A stretch of 64,000 bases of DNA from Escherichia coli (GTDB lineage Bacteria > Pseudomonadota > Gammaproteobacteria > Enterobacterales > Enterobacteriaceae): NCBI RefSeq assembly GCF_022846255.1, contig NZ_AP025682.1; one strand, given 5' to 3'. Below, one piece after another: positions 39,333 through 50,677 of the stretch; within the stretch, counting starts at the first letter, position 1, and the number at the start of each line of letters is the position of its first letter. The position numbers and the translations under genes are program-made. Below the pieces are notes generated by a model, which was not told where the DNA came from, made no database searches, and saw only the letters and a program-made list of their open reading frames with translations.

Positions 39333-40217
39333 GGGATGAAGATGAGATGATTCGCAGGCCTGGGTAATAGTTGGAAAACAACGTCCGTTCCTGGCACAGA
39401 GCAGACCATCGGACTAAACTGAAGGTCCTCTCTGTGCGAGAAACGGAAGTTAGCAATTGTGATACAGACGTGGGGCATTACTCGCTTTACAGTGTGTTAA
39501 TCAATTGGAAACAGGTCAGAATTTATTGGGTGGAATGACACCTTTAAACTTCTTGCGCATCGCAAGGAATATCTCCACCAGACGGTAAGACAGTAGATTG
39601 CGCCACAAGTCCTCAGAATGCCCTTTGCTGGGTTAACCACACGTCGTAATCATCCTTCCAGTGCAGCGGATCAAGATCCGTAATGCTCATAGTCACGCGA
39701 TTTCAAATACAAGCCCAGTGGTGTTATCCGTGAGCTGGACAGTGCTTCCGGCAACATGACTGAGACAGACAAAAAATCAGTTAGTACAGCATTGACTCAG
39801 GTTGAGCAGGAGTTAAAACAAACTGGGCTGGAGCAGTAGAAGCCTGCAGTGAATTCCCTGAATCAGGCGATTAAGTTGGCTTAAGAGTCCGTGTATGCCA
39901 TGTGCCGCGAGATGTCGTGCTATACGTGAAAGTCAGCGATATATATCGTTTTGAAGATGATTTAGGTTACGGGAGTGTCTCTGGGTGATGTATTACTTCA
40001 TCGACATCGGCTACGCACGGGTTGCCGCGATGCAGCGGATGGAAGCTGTCTGGGAAAAGAAAGCTCCGCTTGCTAATATTAGTACATCCGATGAAAAATC
40101 GTGTGTGAAAGTTGCAGATTCGTAATATACTAATGAAGAATGGAGATGTATTTTATATAATAAAAACATCTAAGTAGAGCTTTTTATTTTAAATCCTTCA
40201 TTATTACTGGAGATTTT

Positions 40218-41996
40218 ATGGGTTTTTATAATGACGCACTGAGTAAAATATATAGTGAAGATGATGATTTCCTAATTATAGGATTAACAGGGAGGACGGG
40301 GTCAGGCTGTTCAACAGTTTCTAATATACTGTCATCAGAATCAAGTGAGATAAAGCATTCTCTATTTAACGGTGATTACCCTAAGTCGAATGAAGAAAGA
40401 AAAGAGCGGGTTCTATTTAAATATTTTTCCGTGTCATGGGTTCCATTTATAAAGATACAAGCAAGTTCCATACTGACATTGTGTTTATCAAAGGACTTTG
40501 ATGGTAAGCTGAATAAATTTATTCGGGAAGTGACGGAGTTAGGTAATGACCAAAGAATCCTAGAGTCAACAGTTAATGATCTTGAATCTATACTAAAAGA
40601 AATTAAAGCTAAAGATGAAAGCTCTGATCATGATATAGATGATAAGATAAAATTCATAAATGAATATCTAATAAAAGCGAATACACAAATTAAATCCATA
40701 TTTAAGAACAAGGCTGACTATATAAAACTATATCAAGCTATAGGTAATAATTATAGATCTAGTGGGATGTACCATGACAGTTCATTTAGTGATGATTTCC
40801 ATGGTTTTTTTCTTCCTAAAAAAATAAATGATATAATTCAAAGATTAAGAACCTTAGCAAAAGAAAAGAACACAAAAACTGGAGAAAAGAAACCTATTTA
40901 TATAGTTATTGATGCTATAAGAAATCCGTTCGAAGCAACATACTTCCAAGATAGATACTCATCATTTTATTTAATGGCTGTTTCTACAGAAGAGCATTAC
41001 AGGCATCAAAGGCTTAGAGAACAAGGTTTAACTGATGCTGAGATAAAAGATATTGATGCAAAAGAATACCGTAAATCATCTTTGGATGAGAAGTCATCAT
41101 ATATATATCAGAATATACAGTCTTGTTTAGAAATATCAGACATCTATGTTGAGAATCCGGAAGAGGAAAATGTTGTTTGTCGGTACTCAGGATTGGCTAA
41201 TCAATTAATTAAATTCACTTCATTAATGAAGCGTCCCGGTATAATAACTCCATCAAATGTTGAACGTTGCATGCAGATAGCATATACAGCTAAGTTGAAC
41301 TCTGGTTGTATATCCAGGCAGGTAGGCGCTGCAGTATCTGATAGTTCATTTTCAATTAAGTCTATTGGTTGGAATGATGTACCAAGTGGTCAAGTTCCTT
41401 GCTCTTTAAGGGATAGGTTTGATTTGTCTGAGGGGATTGATGATATTGCTTACTCTGAATTCGAAAAGAACGAAAATAGTTTCATTCGAAAAATAGATAG
41501 CACTAAGATTATTTTTTTAGATGTTAAAAATAAAGGAATGAGAGCTCCATTTTGTTTTAAAACAGAATGGAATAATATCCTTGATGATAAATACAAAGAA
41601 GATCTACGGGTCGAGCATAAGTTAAATGATGATGAGTTTGCTATTATTGACAAAATAAAGTCTAACGCTAATCAAGTTTTTACAAGATCACTTCATGCTG
41701 AAGAGAATGCTTTCTTACAAATATCTAAGTATGGTGGCGTTGGTATACAGAATGGTTTTTTGTTCACAACAGCAAGCCCTTGTGAATTATGTTCTAAAAA
41801 AGCGTATCAATTAGGGATCAAACAAATATATTACATAGATCCATACCCTGGTATAGCAATGAGGAATATTTTAAACGCAGGGAGCAATAAACCATTGCTT
41901 AAGCTTTTCAATGGTGCAATAGGTAAGGCATTCCATAATTTTTACACGCCAAGAATGGCTTATAAAGATGAGCTTTCAGCAAGATCTAGGGGGTGA
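40218..41996 (+). CDS. Two-domain P-loop NTPase / dCMP-cytidine deaminase protein (AvcD / kinase-Dcd-like anti-phage candidate)
   Basis: 592-aa ORF with GGAG Shine-Dalgarno. N-terminus has Walker-A-like GLTGRTGSGCST. C-terminus has HAEENA (about 41694) and PCELC (about 41778) zinc-binding deaminase motifs. Strongly AT-rich, with about 0.8 kb non-coding on each side. Confidence 0.7.
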   Translation: MGFYNDALSKIYSEDDDFLIIGLTGRTGSGCSTVSNILSSESSEIKHSLFNGDYPKSNEERKERVLFKYFSVSWVPFIKIQASSILTLCLSKDFDGKLNKFIREVTELGNDQRILESTVNDLESILKEIKAKDESSDHDIDDKIKFINEYLIKANTQIKSIFKNKADYIKLYQAIGNNYRSSGMYHDSSFSDDFHGFFLPKKINDIIQRLRTLAKEKNTKTGEKKPIYIVIDAIRNPFEATYFQDRYSSFYLMAVSTEEHYRHQRLREQGLTDAEIKDIDAKEYRKSSLDEKSSYIYQNIQSCLEISDIYVENPEEENVVCRYSGLANQLIKFTSLMKRPGIITPSNVERCMQIAYTAKLNSGCISRQVGAAVSDSSFSIKSIGWNDVPSGQVPCSLRDRFDLSEGIDDIAYSEFEKNENSFIRKIDSTKIIFLDVKNKGMRAPFCFKTEWNNILDDKYKEDLRVEHKLNDDEFAIIDKIKSNANQVFTRSLHAEENAFLQISKYGGVGIQNGFLFTTASPCELCSKKAYQLGIKQIYYIDPYPGIAMRNILNAGSNKPLLKLFNGAIGKAFHNFYTPRMAYKDELSARSRG

Positions 41997-42797
41997 AAAT
42001 ATTGATACAGGTAAAGGCAACGAACCAGAAATGCTCGAGACTATTCTGGCTAAGTCTGCCGGGCGATAAGCACGAGTGCATATGCTGTTCCAAAAGTCTT
42101 CTATTCAATAAATTACGAAGTGCTAACTAACTGACCATGTACAATAAGAACAAATCGCCTTGAATTGCTCTTGATTGAATGGTGAAGAATTATGAGGGTG
42201 ATAGTCCTTACCACCCTCAATTAAAATTAAAGGTATTTACGTGAGAAATTTTTCTTAACCACACTACTAATAAAACTATTTAGTCCATGCCCATCCTGGG
42301 CTAGCGCTTTCATCTTAGAGACCGTTGAAGCACCCAGTTTTGTAGAATCGTAACGTATTTCCATCCATCTTTAAACTGTACTGTGATAACATCGGGAGTA
42401 ATCTCATAAAACACTATTCCCGAATTACCGCCTTAATTAGCATAAGTTGGCATTTTTAATTCTTATTAAATTATTGCAGCAAGTCGCTGCACTCTAGTCA
42501 TATGACCCCATGCTAAACCTAATTGTTGAGCTAAGTCATAATTTCGATTATTTGATGAACGTAAGTTATTTGACAGGCAGAATTAACCATACACAGTAAT
42601 ATCCGTTTCTGGCACATAGCAGTCCTATAGATAGTGGCATACAGTCATAGATGGTCGATTGGAGGAGGTGCAAATTCTCCCATACAAAAAATACGTAAAA
42701 TCAATAACAGCTGGAAATTATTTAATAATCAAATTATCGGAAGTTCACCAGCCAGCCGCAGTATTCTGCCACGACAAGTTGCTGCGGCTTTTTATGT

Positions 42798-43085
42798 TTA
42801 ACGGATAAACAGCCAGACCAGCAGACACGCCACCGCGGGCACCGCAAAATCCATCAGACTTGCCACATCCCATGCACGAGGATCAAAACCGCCCCACCAC
42901 GGCATGTTAATCCGCTTGCCATGCCCGAACATTTCAATCCAGCGATATTCTGCCTGGGTGTGTTCACGCGCAATGAAGAACGTACAACCGGCTATCGCCC
43001 CGTAAGCCCAGTTTCCGGTAAAAAGACCAATCAGTAGCTGCGCAGCCACAGCACAAAGTGCATGAAGGAAAGGTGTTATATCCAT
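42798..43085 (-). CDS. Small hydrophobic hypothetical protein (prophage tail-fibre-distal region)
   Basis: Start placed at the ATG preceded by AAAGGAGGA (MDITPFLHAL...). Two predicted hydrophobic segments. Function unknown. Confidence 0.5.
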   Translation of the reverse strand: MDITPFLHALCAVAAQLLIGLFTGNWAYGAIAGCTFFIAREHTQAEYRWIEMFGHGKRINMPWWGGFDPRAWDVASLMDFAVPAVACLLVWLFIR

Positions 43086-43098
43086 TACTCCTCCTTTA

Positions 43099-43800
43099 TC
43101 AGATATCACTTCGGGAAGTTGATAACAACTTTAATTCTGACTCAAGTTCATCAACTCTTTCAGTCAGTTTCTGGATATGGTGAATCAGTGGAACAACCAG
43201 ACGTTCGTACATTACACCTTCGACAACAAGGCCATTGCTGGAAATAGCTTCAGGAGCATCATCTTCGTTAGCTGGTCGCCAGTGTACAAACTGAGGAGCA
43301 ATTTCTCCCACTTCCTCGGCAATCAATCCGTAGAATCCCCAGTCACTCCTGTCATTTTCGCATTGCGACCTGTACCACACAGGGCGCATCCTGAAAATGA
43401 GATCGGCGTGCTCTGAATCTATTGTCTCTACTGAATGTTTATAGCGAATAGACGATGTTGACCGCAGTACAGACGAAATTGCAGGGTCAGGATTAAGATA
43501 AAGATTTGCCGCCGCTGTAGTCGTGCCCAATTCCCATAAATAAAACGCTTCACGGCCAGTCAGCGGGTAAAAATCTCCACCATAACGACCGCTTTCCAGA
43601 TCGTTCACTTCCAGTTTGTTTTTCAGCTTATTATCAACTTCAGTTTTTGTGTATCTGGTGCTGATATCCTGCTTTGCACTGGTCATATCAGTCTGAAGCG
43701 TTGATACTTTTCCGTTAATTGAGGAAATATCTTCCTTAGTTTTACTGACATCTCCCTTTAGCGTGGTGATATCTCCTGGAATTACTGTCGATGTAGCCAT
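43099..43800 (-). CDS. Tail-fibre-associated protein with C-terminal intramolecular-chaperone-like domain
   Basis: 233-aa ORF with coiled-coil-like N-terminal half and C-terminal segment (GLIAEEVGEIAPQFV...ERLVVPLIHHIQKL) resembling the Peptidase_S74 / tail-fibre chaperone domain. Downstream of stf. Confidence 0.55.
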   Translation of the reverse strand: MATSTVIPGDITTLKGDVSKTKEDISSINGKVSTLQTDMTSAKQDISTRYTKTEVDNKLKNKLEVNDLESGRYGGDFYPLTGREAFYLWELGTTTAAANLYLNPDPAISSVLRSTSSIRYKHSVETIDSEHADLIFRMRPVWYRSQCENDRSDWGFYGLIAEEVGEIAPQFVHWRPANEDDAPEAISSNGLVVEGVMYERLVVPLIHHIQKLTERVDELESELKLLSTSRSDI

Positions 43801-43809
43801 TTGTCTCCC

Positions 43810-44091
43810 TCACATCCAGCCACGAAGTTGATGCTCAACAACAACCGCATATTTATCGAATATTGACGATTTTTTTGCATCATTAATGATGCGCACGTTT
43901 ACAAAATATCCGTCTTCCTTAACACATACCGGTTCGCCATCTTCAGTCAGTTCTCCGGTTTCTTTGTACACGTTACCTATCACGTCAATAAGAATATTAT
44001 CCTGCATCGACTCGTCATCATAATAGCCAGTGCTCTCCATAAAGGCCGAAAAGTCGGCCCTGTCTGCAAATTTGAGTGTTAAATCTTTCAT
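43810..44091 (-). CDS. Hypothetical 93-aa acidic protein
   Basis: ORF tightly packed between stf and the next gene. No recognisable motif. Confidence 0.45.
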   Translation of the reverse strand: MKDLTLKFADRADFSAFMESTGYYDDESMQDNILIDVIGNVYKETGELTEDGEPVCVKEDGYFVNVRIINDAKKSSIFDKYAVVVEHQLRGWM

Positions 44092-46530: not shown

Positions 46531-47130
46531 TCAGAACTTATAACCGACACCCACGATGAAACCGTCAGTGCGCCAGTCGCCACTGCCGGAGCCTTCATAA
46601 GCAATATCAATGGCCACGGATTCGGTCGGGTTAAACTGCACGCCAGCTCCCCACGCCAGAGACGTGTTGCTGTGGCGATCGTCATCACTTCCGGTCAGCA
46701 CATCGTGCGTTTTCCCCTTGTTGTCAGTTACGCGGAGATAATCCCCGGAGAACGTCGAAACACGGCTGTAAGCCACACCTGCCATCGCATAAGCACTGAA
46801 CCATTCATTCACGCGTACAGATGGCCCCGCCATCATGCTGAACCAGCGGTTACGCACTGAATCTTCATGCCAGCGGGTATCGCTGTAATGCGTTTTTTGC
46901 TCATCTTTGGCATTGGCATAACTGAATGACGTCACCAGCCCCAGCGTGTCCGTAAACTCATAACGGTATTTCACGTTAATCCCGTTCAGATCATCGCTGC
47001 CTGGCATATCAGTATGGGTCTGAAGATACCCGGCGCTTAGTGTGGACTGATGCTCTGCTGCGCTTGCTGGCGTACCAGCGGCAACCAGCCAGACTACTGC
47101 GGACAGAATAACAGCACATAATTTACGCAT
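46531..47130 (-). CDS. lom: Lom outer-membrane protein (Ail/PagC/OmpX family)
   Basis: 199-aa ORF with signal peptide and beta-barrel character, between J and stf as in lambda. Confidence 0.9.
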   Translation of the reverse strand: MRKLCAVILSAVVWLVAAGTPASAAEHQSTLSAGYLQTHTDMPGSDDLNGINVKYRYEFTDTLGLVTSFSYANAKDEQKTHYSDTRWHEDSVRNRWFSMMAGPSVRVNEWFSAYAMAGVAYSRVSTFSGDYLRVTDNKGKTHDVLTGSDDDRHSNTSLAWGAGVQFNPTESVAIDIAYEGSGSGDWRTDGFIVGVGYKF

Positions 47131-47197: not shown

Positions 47198-50100
47198 TCA
47201 GCTGATACTGATGCCTGCGGTGGCTTTCTTCATCACCACAACCAGCAAATCGCTGATACTTGCTGTGGGATACCAGTCATTTACCAGCCATGCTGACACC
47301 GAAAACTCCAGCGTCATGTGACCGTGACCGGCAGGCATATCAATAACGCCACTGTAAATCAGCGTATTATCCAACGCGGTACGGTTATAAATTTCAGCAC
47401 CGTTTTTCCGCACTATCAGACGGCATGAGGAGTAAATATCAGTATGCTCTCTCTCATGTTTAGCGCCGCTGAATGCCACCGCCGGAATAACAATCTGCCG
47501 GTCAAACGGCTGATCGTCATAAATCCTGACGGTAATGGTCCCTGATGGCCACCGTTCCGGTGCACGGGAGTCCCGGGGGAAAGCTTTGCCCACTGTTTTA
47601 ACGAGATCGCCTTCAATCTGGTTCGCGGACAGTTTTCCCAGAACCCGGCAGTTCTCGTTAATCGTGACGTTGTTGAGCGTCCCGGAGTTCGCATTCACGT
47701 TACCGCTGATATCGGCATTTTTCGCCGTCAGCCGCCCGTCCGGTGTCAGGGAAAATGCCGGAGGATTACCGCCGCTGGTAATGGTGGGAGCCGTCAGATA
47801 TTTCAGGAACACTTCGTTCATGAATATCTGATCGCCCTGACCAACAAACATCGGCTTTGTGTTGCCATTTGCAGGATTAACCATCGCAATCCTGTCCGCC
47901 GCCAGCAGCACCTGACTCTGCATGCCGTCAGGGGTGTTCTCAATACCGGCACCAATACCCGCGATATAAAGGCGTCCGTCCCGCATCTGCTGCAGCTTCA
48001 CAGCCCACATGCTGTTCAGGTTATTATTTGTATCAACCTGAACCTTCTGTATCTGCTGAATTGCCGCACTCTGGTCTTCCAGTTTCTTATTGACGGTCTG
48101 CGTGATTTCATTGCTGACACCCGTAATGGACGTCCTGATTTCAGCCAGGTCAGGCGCAAGCTGACCGTTATCAATCTGCGTCCACAACTCCTGAGCCAGA
48201 TGGGTTTTCCCTATCTCTCCTTTGAAAAAATTCAGATAGCCGGATGCATCATCACTCGGCTGGCCAACAGCCTCCACAAATGCCGATTTGCCAACGGTGT
48301 TCACACTGCGGATGTAAAAATAATAATCATGGCCCGGTTTGATATTGATACTGGCGGCTATCCAGTACAGCGCCGTGCCAAGATAGCGTGCTGTGGTTTC
48401 AACCTGCCTGATATCCGCAATCCGCTTTTCCGAGAACCAGAACTCAAACTGTACCGTCGGATCATAAACCGCAAGATGCGGCGTGGCGGTTATCTGAAAA
48501 TACCCCGGTGTCAGCTCAATCTGCGACGGCGCTGCCGGTGCGGCAATCCGGAACGATACCGATGCCGGATCGCCCTGCTGCCCCCACGCATTTACCGCCC
48601 GGACTGTCAGCCTGTAGTTCCCCAGCGCCAGTTGCCTGAAGCGGTATGTGGTTTCCGTCGTCCGGGCCATGCTGACCAGCCGCTCACTGCCGTCGTCCGC
48701 TGCCACGGTAAGGCGAAGCAGGAAGCTCACGCCCTTCACCACCTTCGGCGTGTCCCATCGCGCCAGCACCTGATATTCCCCGCTGTCTGCGGTGACTTCG
48801 GCGGTCAGGTGCTGCACCGCTGGCGGCGTGACACCATTCACCGTGCCGCTCTGGTCGCCGTCAAAGTGCGCCCCGTTATCCACGATGGCTTCTTTTTCCG
48901 GTACATGCTGCACGGCGGTGATGGCATACGTACCGTCATCGTTCTCCCGGATACTCACACAGCGGAACAGGCGCTGGCGCAGCGTCGGCAGCTTCAGCCC
49001 CCATACGCTGTATTCAGCAACACCGTCAGGAACACGGCTCACTTTCACCTTCACGCCGTCGGTGACGGACTGAACCTCCACGCTGACCGGACTCCCCTGC
49101 CCGTCAACCAGGCTTATCAGCGTGGTGCCGGAGGATGGCAGCGTGATTTCACGGTCGAGCGTCAGCGTCCGGGTCTGGCTGTTTACCGCCAGCACGCGCC
49201 CGCCGGTGCTGATACCGGCATAGTCATCATCACAGATTTCAATGACATCGCCCGGCACATGGCGAAGCCCTTCTGCGCCCACGCTGAAGTCCACGGTCTG
49301 CGTTTCCAGCAGTTCTGTTTTAATCAGCCACAGCCCGGCGCGGTGTGCCTGCCCCCGGCTGGTACAGCCAAAAGCATCCATCTTCGTGACGTTACGACCG
49401 TAACGGGCAATGGCCTGCGTGTCCTCCACAAGCTCTGTCGCCGTCTCCCAGCCGTTGTTCGGGTCAATCCAGTTCACCTCAACGGCATTATGGCGGTCTT
49501 TCAGGGCGCTGAAGCTGTAGCGGAACGGCGCGCCATCATCCGGCATCACCACATTACTGCGGTTATAGGTCCACACCTTATCCGACGGTCGGTCCTGCAC
49601 GAACGTCAGCGTCTGCCCGTTCCATACCGGCATACAGCGCATCGCCGAGCAGAAATCACTGAGCACATCCCACGCCTTGCGCTGTGTGGTCAGGTACGCA
49701 TTACAGGTGATGCGCGGCTCCGTGCCGCCAAAACCGTCCGGCACTGACTGGTCGCAATACTGGCCGATGACATACAGCGCCCATTTATCCACATCTGCCG
49801 CACCAAGACGTTTCCCCATGCCGTAGCGCGGGTGGGTCAGCATATCCCACAGACACCAGGCCATGTTGTTGCTGTATGCTGGCTTAAACGTTCCGTCCCA
49901 GATACCGCTGTATTGCCGCGTCTGCGGGTTATAGTTCGACGGCACCTGCAGAATACGCCCGCGCAGATGATAATTACGGCTCACCTGCTGGCTGCCGAAC
50001 TGCTCCGAATCCACCTGCACGCCGACCAGTGCCGTGTTCGGGTAGCACTGTTTCACATCGATGATTTCGGTGTATGACGACCAGAGCGTTTTGTTCTGCA

Positions 50101-50677
50101 GCTGGTCTGTGGTGCTGTCCGGCGTCATCCTGCGCATCCGGATATTAAACGGGCGCGGCGGCAGGTTATCCACCACCACCGAGGCCAGATACTGCGAGGT
50201 GGTTTTGCCCTTAATGGTGATGTCTTTTTCCGTCACCCAGCCACCGTTACGTTGTATCTGAACCAGCAGGCGGACTTCCGATGGATTCCTGTCCCCCTTT
50301 GAGGTGGTTTCCACCAGTGCCTGCACACCGAAGGTAAAGCGCAGACGGTCGATGTTTGCCGACGTGATGGTGCGGGTGATCGGCGTGTCGTATTTCACTT
50401 CCGTACCCAGCACCGTCTCGGAACCGGAGGATTCAAATCCCTCCGGCGGTGTCTGCTCCTGCTCACCTGCCCGGAACACCACCGTGACACCGGAGATGTT
50501 GGTATTCCCCTCACTGTCCAGCACCGGCGTACTGTTCAGCAGCACGCTTTTTAATCCATCCACCGGACCTTCAACCGGCCCTTCACTGATGGCATCAATC
50601 ACACTCAGCAACTGCGTGGATTTCAGGTTGTCCTTCGCTTCGCGCGGGGTATGCCCCTTACTGCTGCCTTTACCCAT
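47198..50677 (-). CDS. J: Tail tip / host-specificity protein J
   Basis: 1159-aa ORF. The N-terminal about 800 aa match lambda J closely. The C-terminal receptor-binding part diverges. Confidence 0.95.

Follow-up and report, generated by a model that had tools for sequence, protein, structure and literature searches.

The open reading frame (ORF) that we analysed in the window, a 64,000-nucleotide stretch of Escherichia coli DNA (contig NZ_AP025682.1), is a complete lambda-type J protein, and it is likely that this protein represents a four-module J assembled by recombination, with a tip that binds the porin OmpC. The original prediction had held that roughly the first 800 residues follow lambda J closely, that about 350 C-terminal residues diverge from it, and that the divergence points to a host receptor other than LamB. 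The alignments and the published data described below bear out all three statements, and they extend them in that OmpC can be named as the most likely receptor, the divergence is resolved into a mosaic of three pieces, and the tip allele proves to be common and already characterised.

J gene and its prophage surroundings

The J reading frame was uninterrupted, with 1159 codons followed by a stop codon, and a Pfam search of the protein detected six J-specific domains in the expected order, with E values of 1e-31 to 2e-43 (Table 1). A sequence search of the PDB matched lambda J to it at E = 0. An identical 1159-aa protein is present in NCBI (BDH33930.1 / WP_244331534.1), where it is annotated as host specificity protein J, and the RefSeq label on the matching genes is "phage attachment tail tip protein J". 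J is full-length and functional-looking, and its four modules would have been put together by recombination, judging from the alignments.

Table 1. Positions of J, its domains and modules, and neighbouring genes in the window
Feature	Window position	Strand	J residues	Basis or remark
MFS transporter	35770-36960			between torT and prophage
alpha/beta hydrolase	37141-38289			between torT and prophage
LysR regulator	38445-39329			between torT and prophage
dCTPase gene, 592-aa ORF	40218-41993	+		PADLOC dCTPase model, E 5e-127
stf, intact side tail fibre gene, 793 aa	44091..46472	-		Pfam phage_tail_N, E 2e-63
lom homologue, directly downstream of J	46531..47130	-		Pfam Ail_Lom, E 3e-128, full length
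J gene, tail tip attachment / central tail fibre protein	47198..50677	-		intact ORF, Pfam domains
Module 1, lambda-like hub domains and two FNIII/Ig domains	48263..50677	-	1-805	17 substitutions relative to lambda J
Module 2, long putative alpha-helical shaft and upper beta-prism fibre, phage 21 type	47813..48262	-	806-955	
Extra-residue region within module 2	48080..48172	-	836-866	28 residues (836-856 and 860-866)
Module 3, lower beta-prism junction	47654..47812	-	956-1008	conserved in every J compared
Module 4, Ig-like receptor-binding domain and stop codon, 1A2 / VT1-Sakai / PhiR55_1 type	47198..47653	-	1009-1159	predicted OmpC binder
FNIII-A_GpJ			86-207	Pfam
Phage-tail_3			330-498	Pfam
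Ig_J			610-714	Pfam
Ig_J_second			716-818	Pfam
Phage_Tail_Tip			872-1000	Pfam
Ig_GpJ_C, C-terminal receptor-binding domain			1029-1159	Pfam, E 3e-37

The genes around J were arranged in the lambda-like tail gene order H-M-L-K-I-J-lom-stf. The ORFs upstream of J encode 853, 109, 232, 247 and 223 aa; those of H, M, L and I (853, 109, 232 and 223 aa) have the lambda lengths, and the 247-aa K ORF has the length of K in phage 21, lambda K being annotated with 199 aa. The stf gene of laboratory lambda, unlike the intact stf in the window, is frameshifted. The window Stf was 65% identical to that of PhiR55_1, a phage closely related in J, and this value reflects a mosaic: the N-terminal half, which carries Ala/Ser/Thr-rich repeats, hardly differs between the two, and in the C-terminal half the identity is only about 50%. 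Because the C-terminal half is unlike that of PhiR55_1, the second host-range determinant differs from that of the closest phage. Downstream of stf, three small ORFs were observed (43813-44091, 43102-43800 and 42801-43109, all on the minus strand), of which the second, encoding 233 aa, contains a Peptidase_S74 (chaperone of endosialidase) domain, a domain typical of the self-cleaving chaperone modules of tail fibres and tailspikes, whereas the other two, of 93 and 103 aa, gave no Pfam match. The products of these small ORFs may help in fibre assembly or act as accessory fibre proteins.

The prophage starts at about position 42808. The flanking chromosome, with rut, wrbA, agp and torDACRT, is 99.1% identical to that of E. 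coli, and it is collinear with the E. coli chromosomes that match best only as far as torT (34212-35240); no ORF of the size of torS was found after torT in the interval 35565-42800. This suggests that an island and the prophage were inserted at the torS-torT site. The genes in the interval include the dCTPase gene, the product of which begins with a kinase-like AAA_18 region and ends with a cytidine/dCMP deaminase region; the PADLOC model that it matched stands for dCTP deaminase anti-phage defence. The gene is situated in DNA of low GC content (0.36-0.38 at 42000-42750), immediately beyond the prophage end that carries the tail-fibre genes.

It could be considered that J resides in a defective prophage and has no role in infection, so that its receptor specificity is without a current biological role. 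The prophage runs past the end of the window, with the early genes, the integrase and the lysis genes beyond view, and the VT1-Sakai J gene, which carries the same tip, is frameshifted. However, J and the other tail and head ORFs within view are all intact, with lambda-like lengths, and J is 99% identical at the amino acid level to the J protein of PhiR55_1 (PV340571), a temperate, plaque-forming phage that was induced from an ECOR strain and propagated on E. coli C. We therefore regard the defective state as rather unlikely, and it can in any case be compatible with the assembly of J from four modules and with an OmpC-binding tip.

Mosaic structure of J

BLASTP alignment with lambda J (NC_001416, 1132 aa) indicated an overall identity of 83%, which was distributed very unevenly. 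Only 17 substitutions were found in residues 1-805 (97.9% identity), in agreement with the predicted lambda-like body, and the ten next differences crowded into residues 806-829 in a five-sequence protein alignment, placing the break at residue 806 and leaving 354 divergent residues, close to the number originally proposed. When the identity to lambda J was scored per 40-residue block of the protein alignment, it was 92-100% in the blocks up to residue 800, 52% in residues 801-840, 12% with a gap in residues 841-880, 45% in residues 881-920, 70% in residues 921-960, 95% in residues 961-1000 and 32-50% in residues 1001-1159. The divergent tail is, accordingly, not uniform but is broken by a conserved stretch at residues 956-1008. 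The DNA alignment gave a consistent picture, with 90-98% identity to lambda until about position 48281 and a break at about 48262-48280, where the GC content falls from 0.58-0.64 upstream to about 0.49-0.55. The region at 47198-48300, on which the prediction had been focused, corresponds to J residues 793-1159, the 3' third of the gene, and the DNA break lies inside it.

To delineate the modules, the last 1500 nt of J were aligned with those of lambda, phage 21, VT1-Sakai, 2G7b, PhiR55_1 and 434. The DNA alignment with these six reference phages and prophages resolved clean mosaic blocks with visible boundaries. In module 2, the DNA identity was 93-100% to phage 21 and 95-100% to PhiR55_1 but just 10-83% to lambda. 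This module includes 84 nt, or 28 codons, for which the DNA of lambda, 434 and 2G7b shows two gaps (63 and 21 nt), and the protein alignment repeated the 28-residue gaps in the J proteins of these three; the extra shaft residues are common to the window J, phage 21, BP-4795, VT1-Sakai and PhiR55_1. In the lambda structure, the stretch after the second FNIII domain is an alpha-helical shaft that refolds as the tail opens (PMC11101478). Because the stretch carrying the gaps corresponds to this shaft, the window J would have a longer shaft than lambda J. An AlphaFold2 (AF2) monomer model covering residues 793-1159 was confident for the binding domain alone (pLDDT 70-95); it drew residues ~811-890 as a helix at pLDDT below 50 and thus only weakly suggests a helical shaft, such low values in the shaft and prism being expected of a trimeric fibre.

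Modular swapping of the J tip among lambdoid phages is textbook knowledge, and module 3 is likely to be the recombination point for tip exchange, as far as can be judged from the aligned sequences. 2G7b changes from the lambda type to the window type at alignment columns ~870-886 (residues ~950-954), just upstream of module 3, and in the engineered chimeras described below the joint lies at ADISG within the junction in 1A2 and just downstream, after NANSGTL, in A8. The switch in 2G7b and the joints in 1A2 and A8 fit the use of residues 956-1008 as a crossover for tip exchange. Moreover, the length of the shaft is not tied to the type of tip: 2G7b combines a short shaft with a window-type tip and phage 21 combines a long shaft with another tip.

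The tip and its predicted receptor

To classify the tip, its identity was determined over the last 160 residues of J. It was 100% to PhiR55_1; 96-98% to VT1-Sakai, PPompW, several Stx-phage J proteins and 2G7b; 65% to phage 21; 62% to BP-4795; 44% to lambda; and 43.5% to 434. A highly identical C-terminal domain, which would have spoken against the predicted divergence, was thus absent from the pairwise alignment with lambda J. Three known types of tip were considered and rejected: a LamB-binding lambda-type tip, in view of the above identity and of that per block past residue 1000; a 434-type OmpC-binding tip, from which the window tip is also separated by several indels; and a tip of the A8 / phage 21 / BP-4795 type, which forms a sister class at 62-65% identity and of which the NFNSNNQQSYWYS insertion is absent. 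In the PDB, the best sequence match of the C-terminal part was "A8 gpJ 713" (9wca/9wcb), ahead of lambda J, and a Foldseek search with the AF2 model likewise ranked 9wca first, with 9wca/9wcb (A8 gpJ) as the best matches, followed by 8xck/8xcj (lambda). According to the PDB titles, 9wca is A8 gpJ alone and 9wcb is A8 gpJ bound to EDL933 OmpC.

Direct evidence on a tip of this class comes from Brodel et al. (Nature, 2024), who fused natural C-terminal parts of E. coli gpJ to lambda gpJ in order to redirect the particles from LamB to OmpC; 1A2 and A8 are chimeras from that work (PMC11338833). As the 1A2 DNA in the supplement is recoded and was read by machine from a PDF with dropped bases, we aligned it with the window protein by a frameshift-tolerant procedure, plain tblastn having given broken fragments. 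Over the C-terminal segment that starts at about residue 993, 170 of the 191 positions were identical and 12 were unreadable. The clear differences from the window to 1A2 were I1052V, R1076K, D1134N and S1157T, all of them conservative, with F1069L uncertain, and the readable 1A2 residues at the differing positions are exactly those of the VT1-Sakai allele. The two tips thus belong to the same allele class at about 97% identity, with 4-5 differing positions at which the range of accepted OmpC variants could shift.

DNA delivery by 1A2 in a K-12 host with a double deletion of lamB and ompC needs a suitable OmpC to be supplied, and at the highest MOI it exceeded 75% with 20 of the 23 OmpC variants examined in that host (PMC11338833). 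The three failures were G1, the values of which are those of the MG1655 OmpC panel, G2 and G40; delivery was 2% with MG1655 OmpC, whereas EDL933 OmpC, which is variant G17, was accepted, and A8, unlike 1A2, also accepts K-12 OmpC (PMC11338833). A follow-up preprint, in which 1A2 is aimed at O157 strains, restates OmpC, rather than LamB, as the receptor. Because a near-identical domain was tested in the 1A2 chimera, we infer that OmpC is the most likely receptor of the window J, which most probably prefers OmpC variants other than that of K-12. A receptor-prediction preprint (10.64898/2026.04.02.716166) was set aside, as it deals with GpJ of Drexlerviridae and explicitly excludes the lambda tip.

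A variation of this assignment is that the tip uses OmpC but that I1052, R1076, D1134 and S1157 confer another range of OmpC variants or a second receptor. Position 1134 is indeed polymorphic among near-identical alleles, the window and PhiR55_1 having D, VT1-Sakai and 1A2 having N, and 2G7b having G; A8 and 1A2 differ in the OmpC variants that they accept; and Gifsy-1 J binds several outer-membrane proteins, namely OmpC, OmpX and BtuB. However, all four changes are conservative in a domain 97% identical to the tested one, and there is no evidence that the four positions contact the receptor, so that a shifted range seems unlikely. That the tip still uses LamB, its divergence being neutral drift within a LamB-binding domain, is highly improbable, because, although the fold and the core motifs DDxxFDRQ, NG, DMPAG and KK..GIS are kept and lambda J remains a significant match, less than half of the residues are identical to the lambda binding domain, and 1A2 delivered at 5% into LamB-positive wild-type MG1655 at an MOI of 50 and worked in the lamB deletion host once OmpC was supplied (PMC11338833). 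The use of a receptor other than LamB, as originally predicted, is therefore well supported, and OmpC remains the preferred candidate.

The tip is widespread. A search with the tip DNA (last 453 nt) against 5426 complete E. coli genomes retrieved 2551 records at an identity of at least 95% and 554 records at an identity of at least 99%, the median number of J copies in tip-positive genomes being two, and the 90%-identity cluster of the J protein contains 34,633 members. The tip allele is among the commonest in E. coli prophages and has already been characterised, so that nothing about it is new here. As a discovery it matters little; roughly every second complete E. coli genome has this tip, and it is already in use in engineered lambda delivery particles. 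Its practical value lies in annotation, where the central fibre can be labelled as probably OmpC-specific (1A2 / VT1-Sakai type) and not as LamB-specific, and the former label predicts that the phage would not plate on K-12 via the native K-12 OmpC.

Proposed mechanism and comparison with known systems

Because residues 1-805 are 97.9% identical to the structurally solved lambda J, we infer that the window J forms a trimer by which the tail tip is kept closed until a receptor is bound. In the proposed mechanism, residues 1-805, which are essentially those of lambda, would form the hub and the two FNIII/Ig domains that plug the tail tube; residues 806-955 would provide the phage 21-type shaft and the upper beta-prism; the DNA encoding the conserved lower prism (residues 956-1008) would have served as the crossover point for tip swaps; and the tip of residues 1009-1159 would bind the trimeric porin OmpC rather than LamB, accepting most natural OmpC variants with the exception of that of K-12. 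By analogy with the lambda-LamB and A8-OmpC complexes, the three binding domains could dock on the porin trimer with their distal ends spreading, after which the prism would twist, the helical shaft would flip and partly turn into beta-sheet, and the FNIII strings would come apart, so that the hub opens for DNA ejection. This sequence of spreading, twisting, shaft flip, FNIII dissociation and hub opening is taken from lambda J (PMC11101478). The same two states are seen in the sister class, where the OmpC-binding A8 is closed in 9wca and open in OmpC-bound 9wcb.

There is a small chance that the combination of the long phage 21-type shaft with a 1A2-like tip carrying D1134, R1076, I1052 and S1157 may act unlike the 1A2 chimera. 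If this is the case, the longer shaft might reach further through the O-antigen or capsule or might alter the helix-to-sheet trigger, and the polymorphic position 1134 might retune the acceptance of OmpC variants.

Among the known systems, lambda J (PDB 8iyk, 8xck and 8xcj) shares the domain order and the conserved lower prism with the window J, and its triggering mechanism is expected to be the same, but its shaft is 28 residues shorter and its binding domain, 44% identical, binds LamB. The J protein of 434 (OL657226) has the same architecture but a short shaft, and its binding domain represents a separate class at 43.5% identity; it is the classical OmpC-using lambdoid tip, with OmpC as its reported receptor (PMC11101478). 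In phage 21 (OL657228), the body and the long shaft are 93-100% identical to the window J at the nucleotide level until about residue 960, whereas its tip, together with that of A8, falls into the sister class of binding domains, in which the loops differ from those of the window tip, for example by six inserted residues (NFNSNN) and by a shortened segment behind FPR. The A8 tip also uses OmpC, like the predicted receptor of the window tip.

The tip class of the window J occurs in many O157 prophages, and 1A2 has its natural counterpart in the J tip of the VT1-Sakai, PPompW and Stx2a prophages of E. coli O157:H7. Within this class, the J gene of VT1-Sakai (AP000400, 2129-5601) is frameshifted and annotated as two overlapping truncated CDSs, and its body (residues ~360-720) is just 42-82% identical to the window J; the same tip allele is thus kept in an apparently inactive J. 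The J protein of 2G7b (LR595866, 588-3983), with 1131 aa, joins a lambda-type short shaft to a window-type binding domain, and the crossover, visible inside the conserved CAGATATTCATGAACGA stretch, makes it a natural counterpart of the engineered tip swap. The 1A2 chimera itself was joined in the same conserved ADISG region that is found in the window J, but it has the short lambda shaft instead of the long phage 21-type shaft. The paper naming PhiR55_1 (bioRxiv 10.1101/2025.11.03.685801) tested its ManYZ dependence and gives no receptor for it. PhiR55_1 J has the same tip and the same long shaft, with a few substitutions in the body, and at 97.6% nucleotide and 99% amino acid identity over the full length, it belongs to the closest phage.
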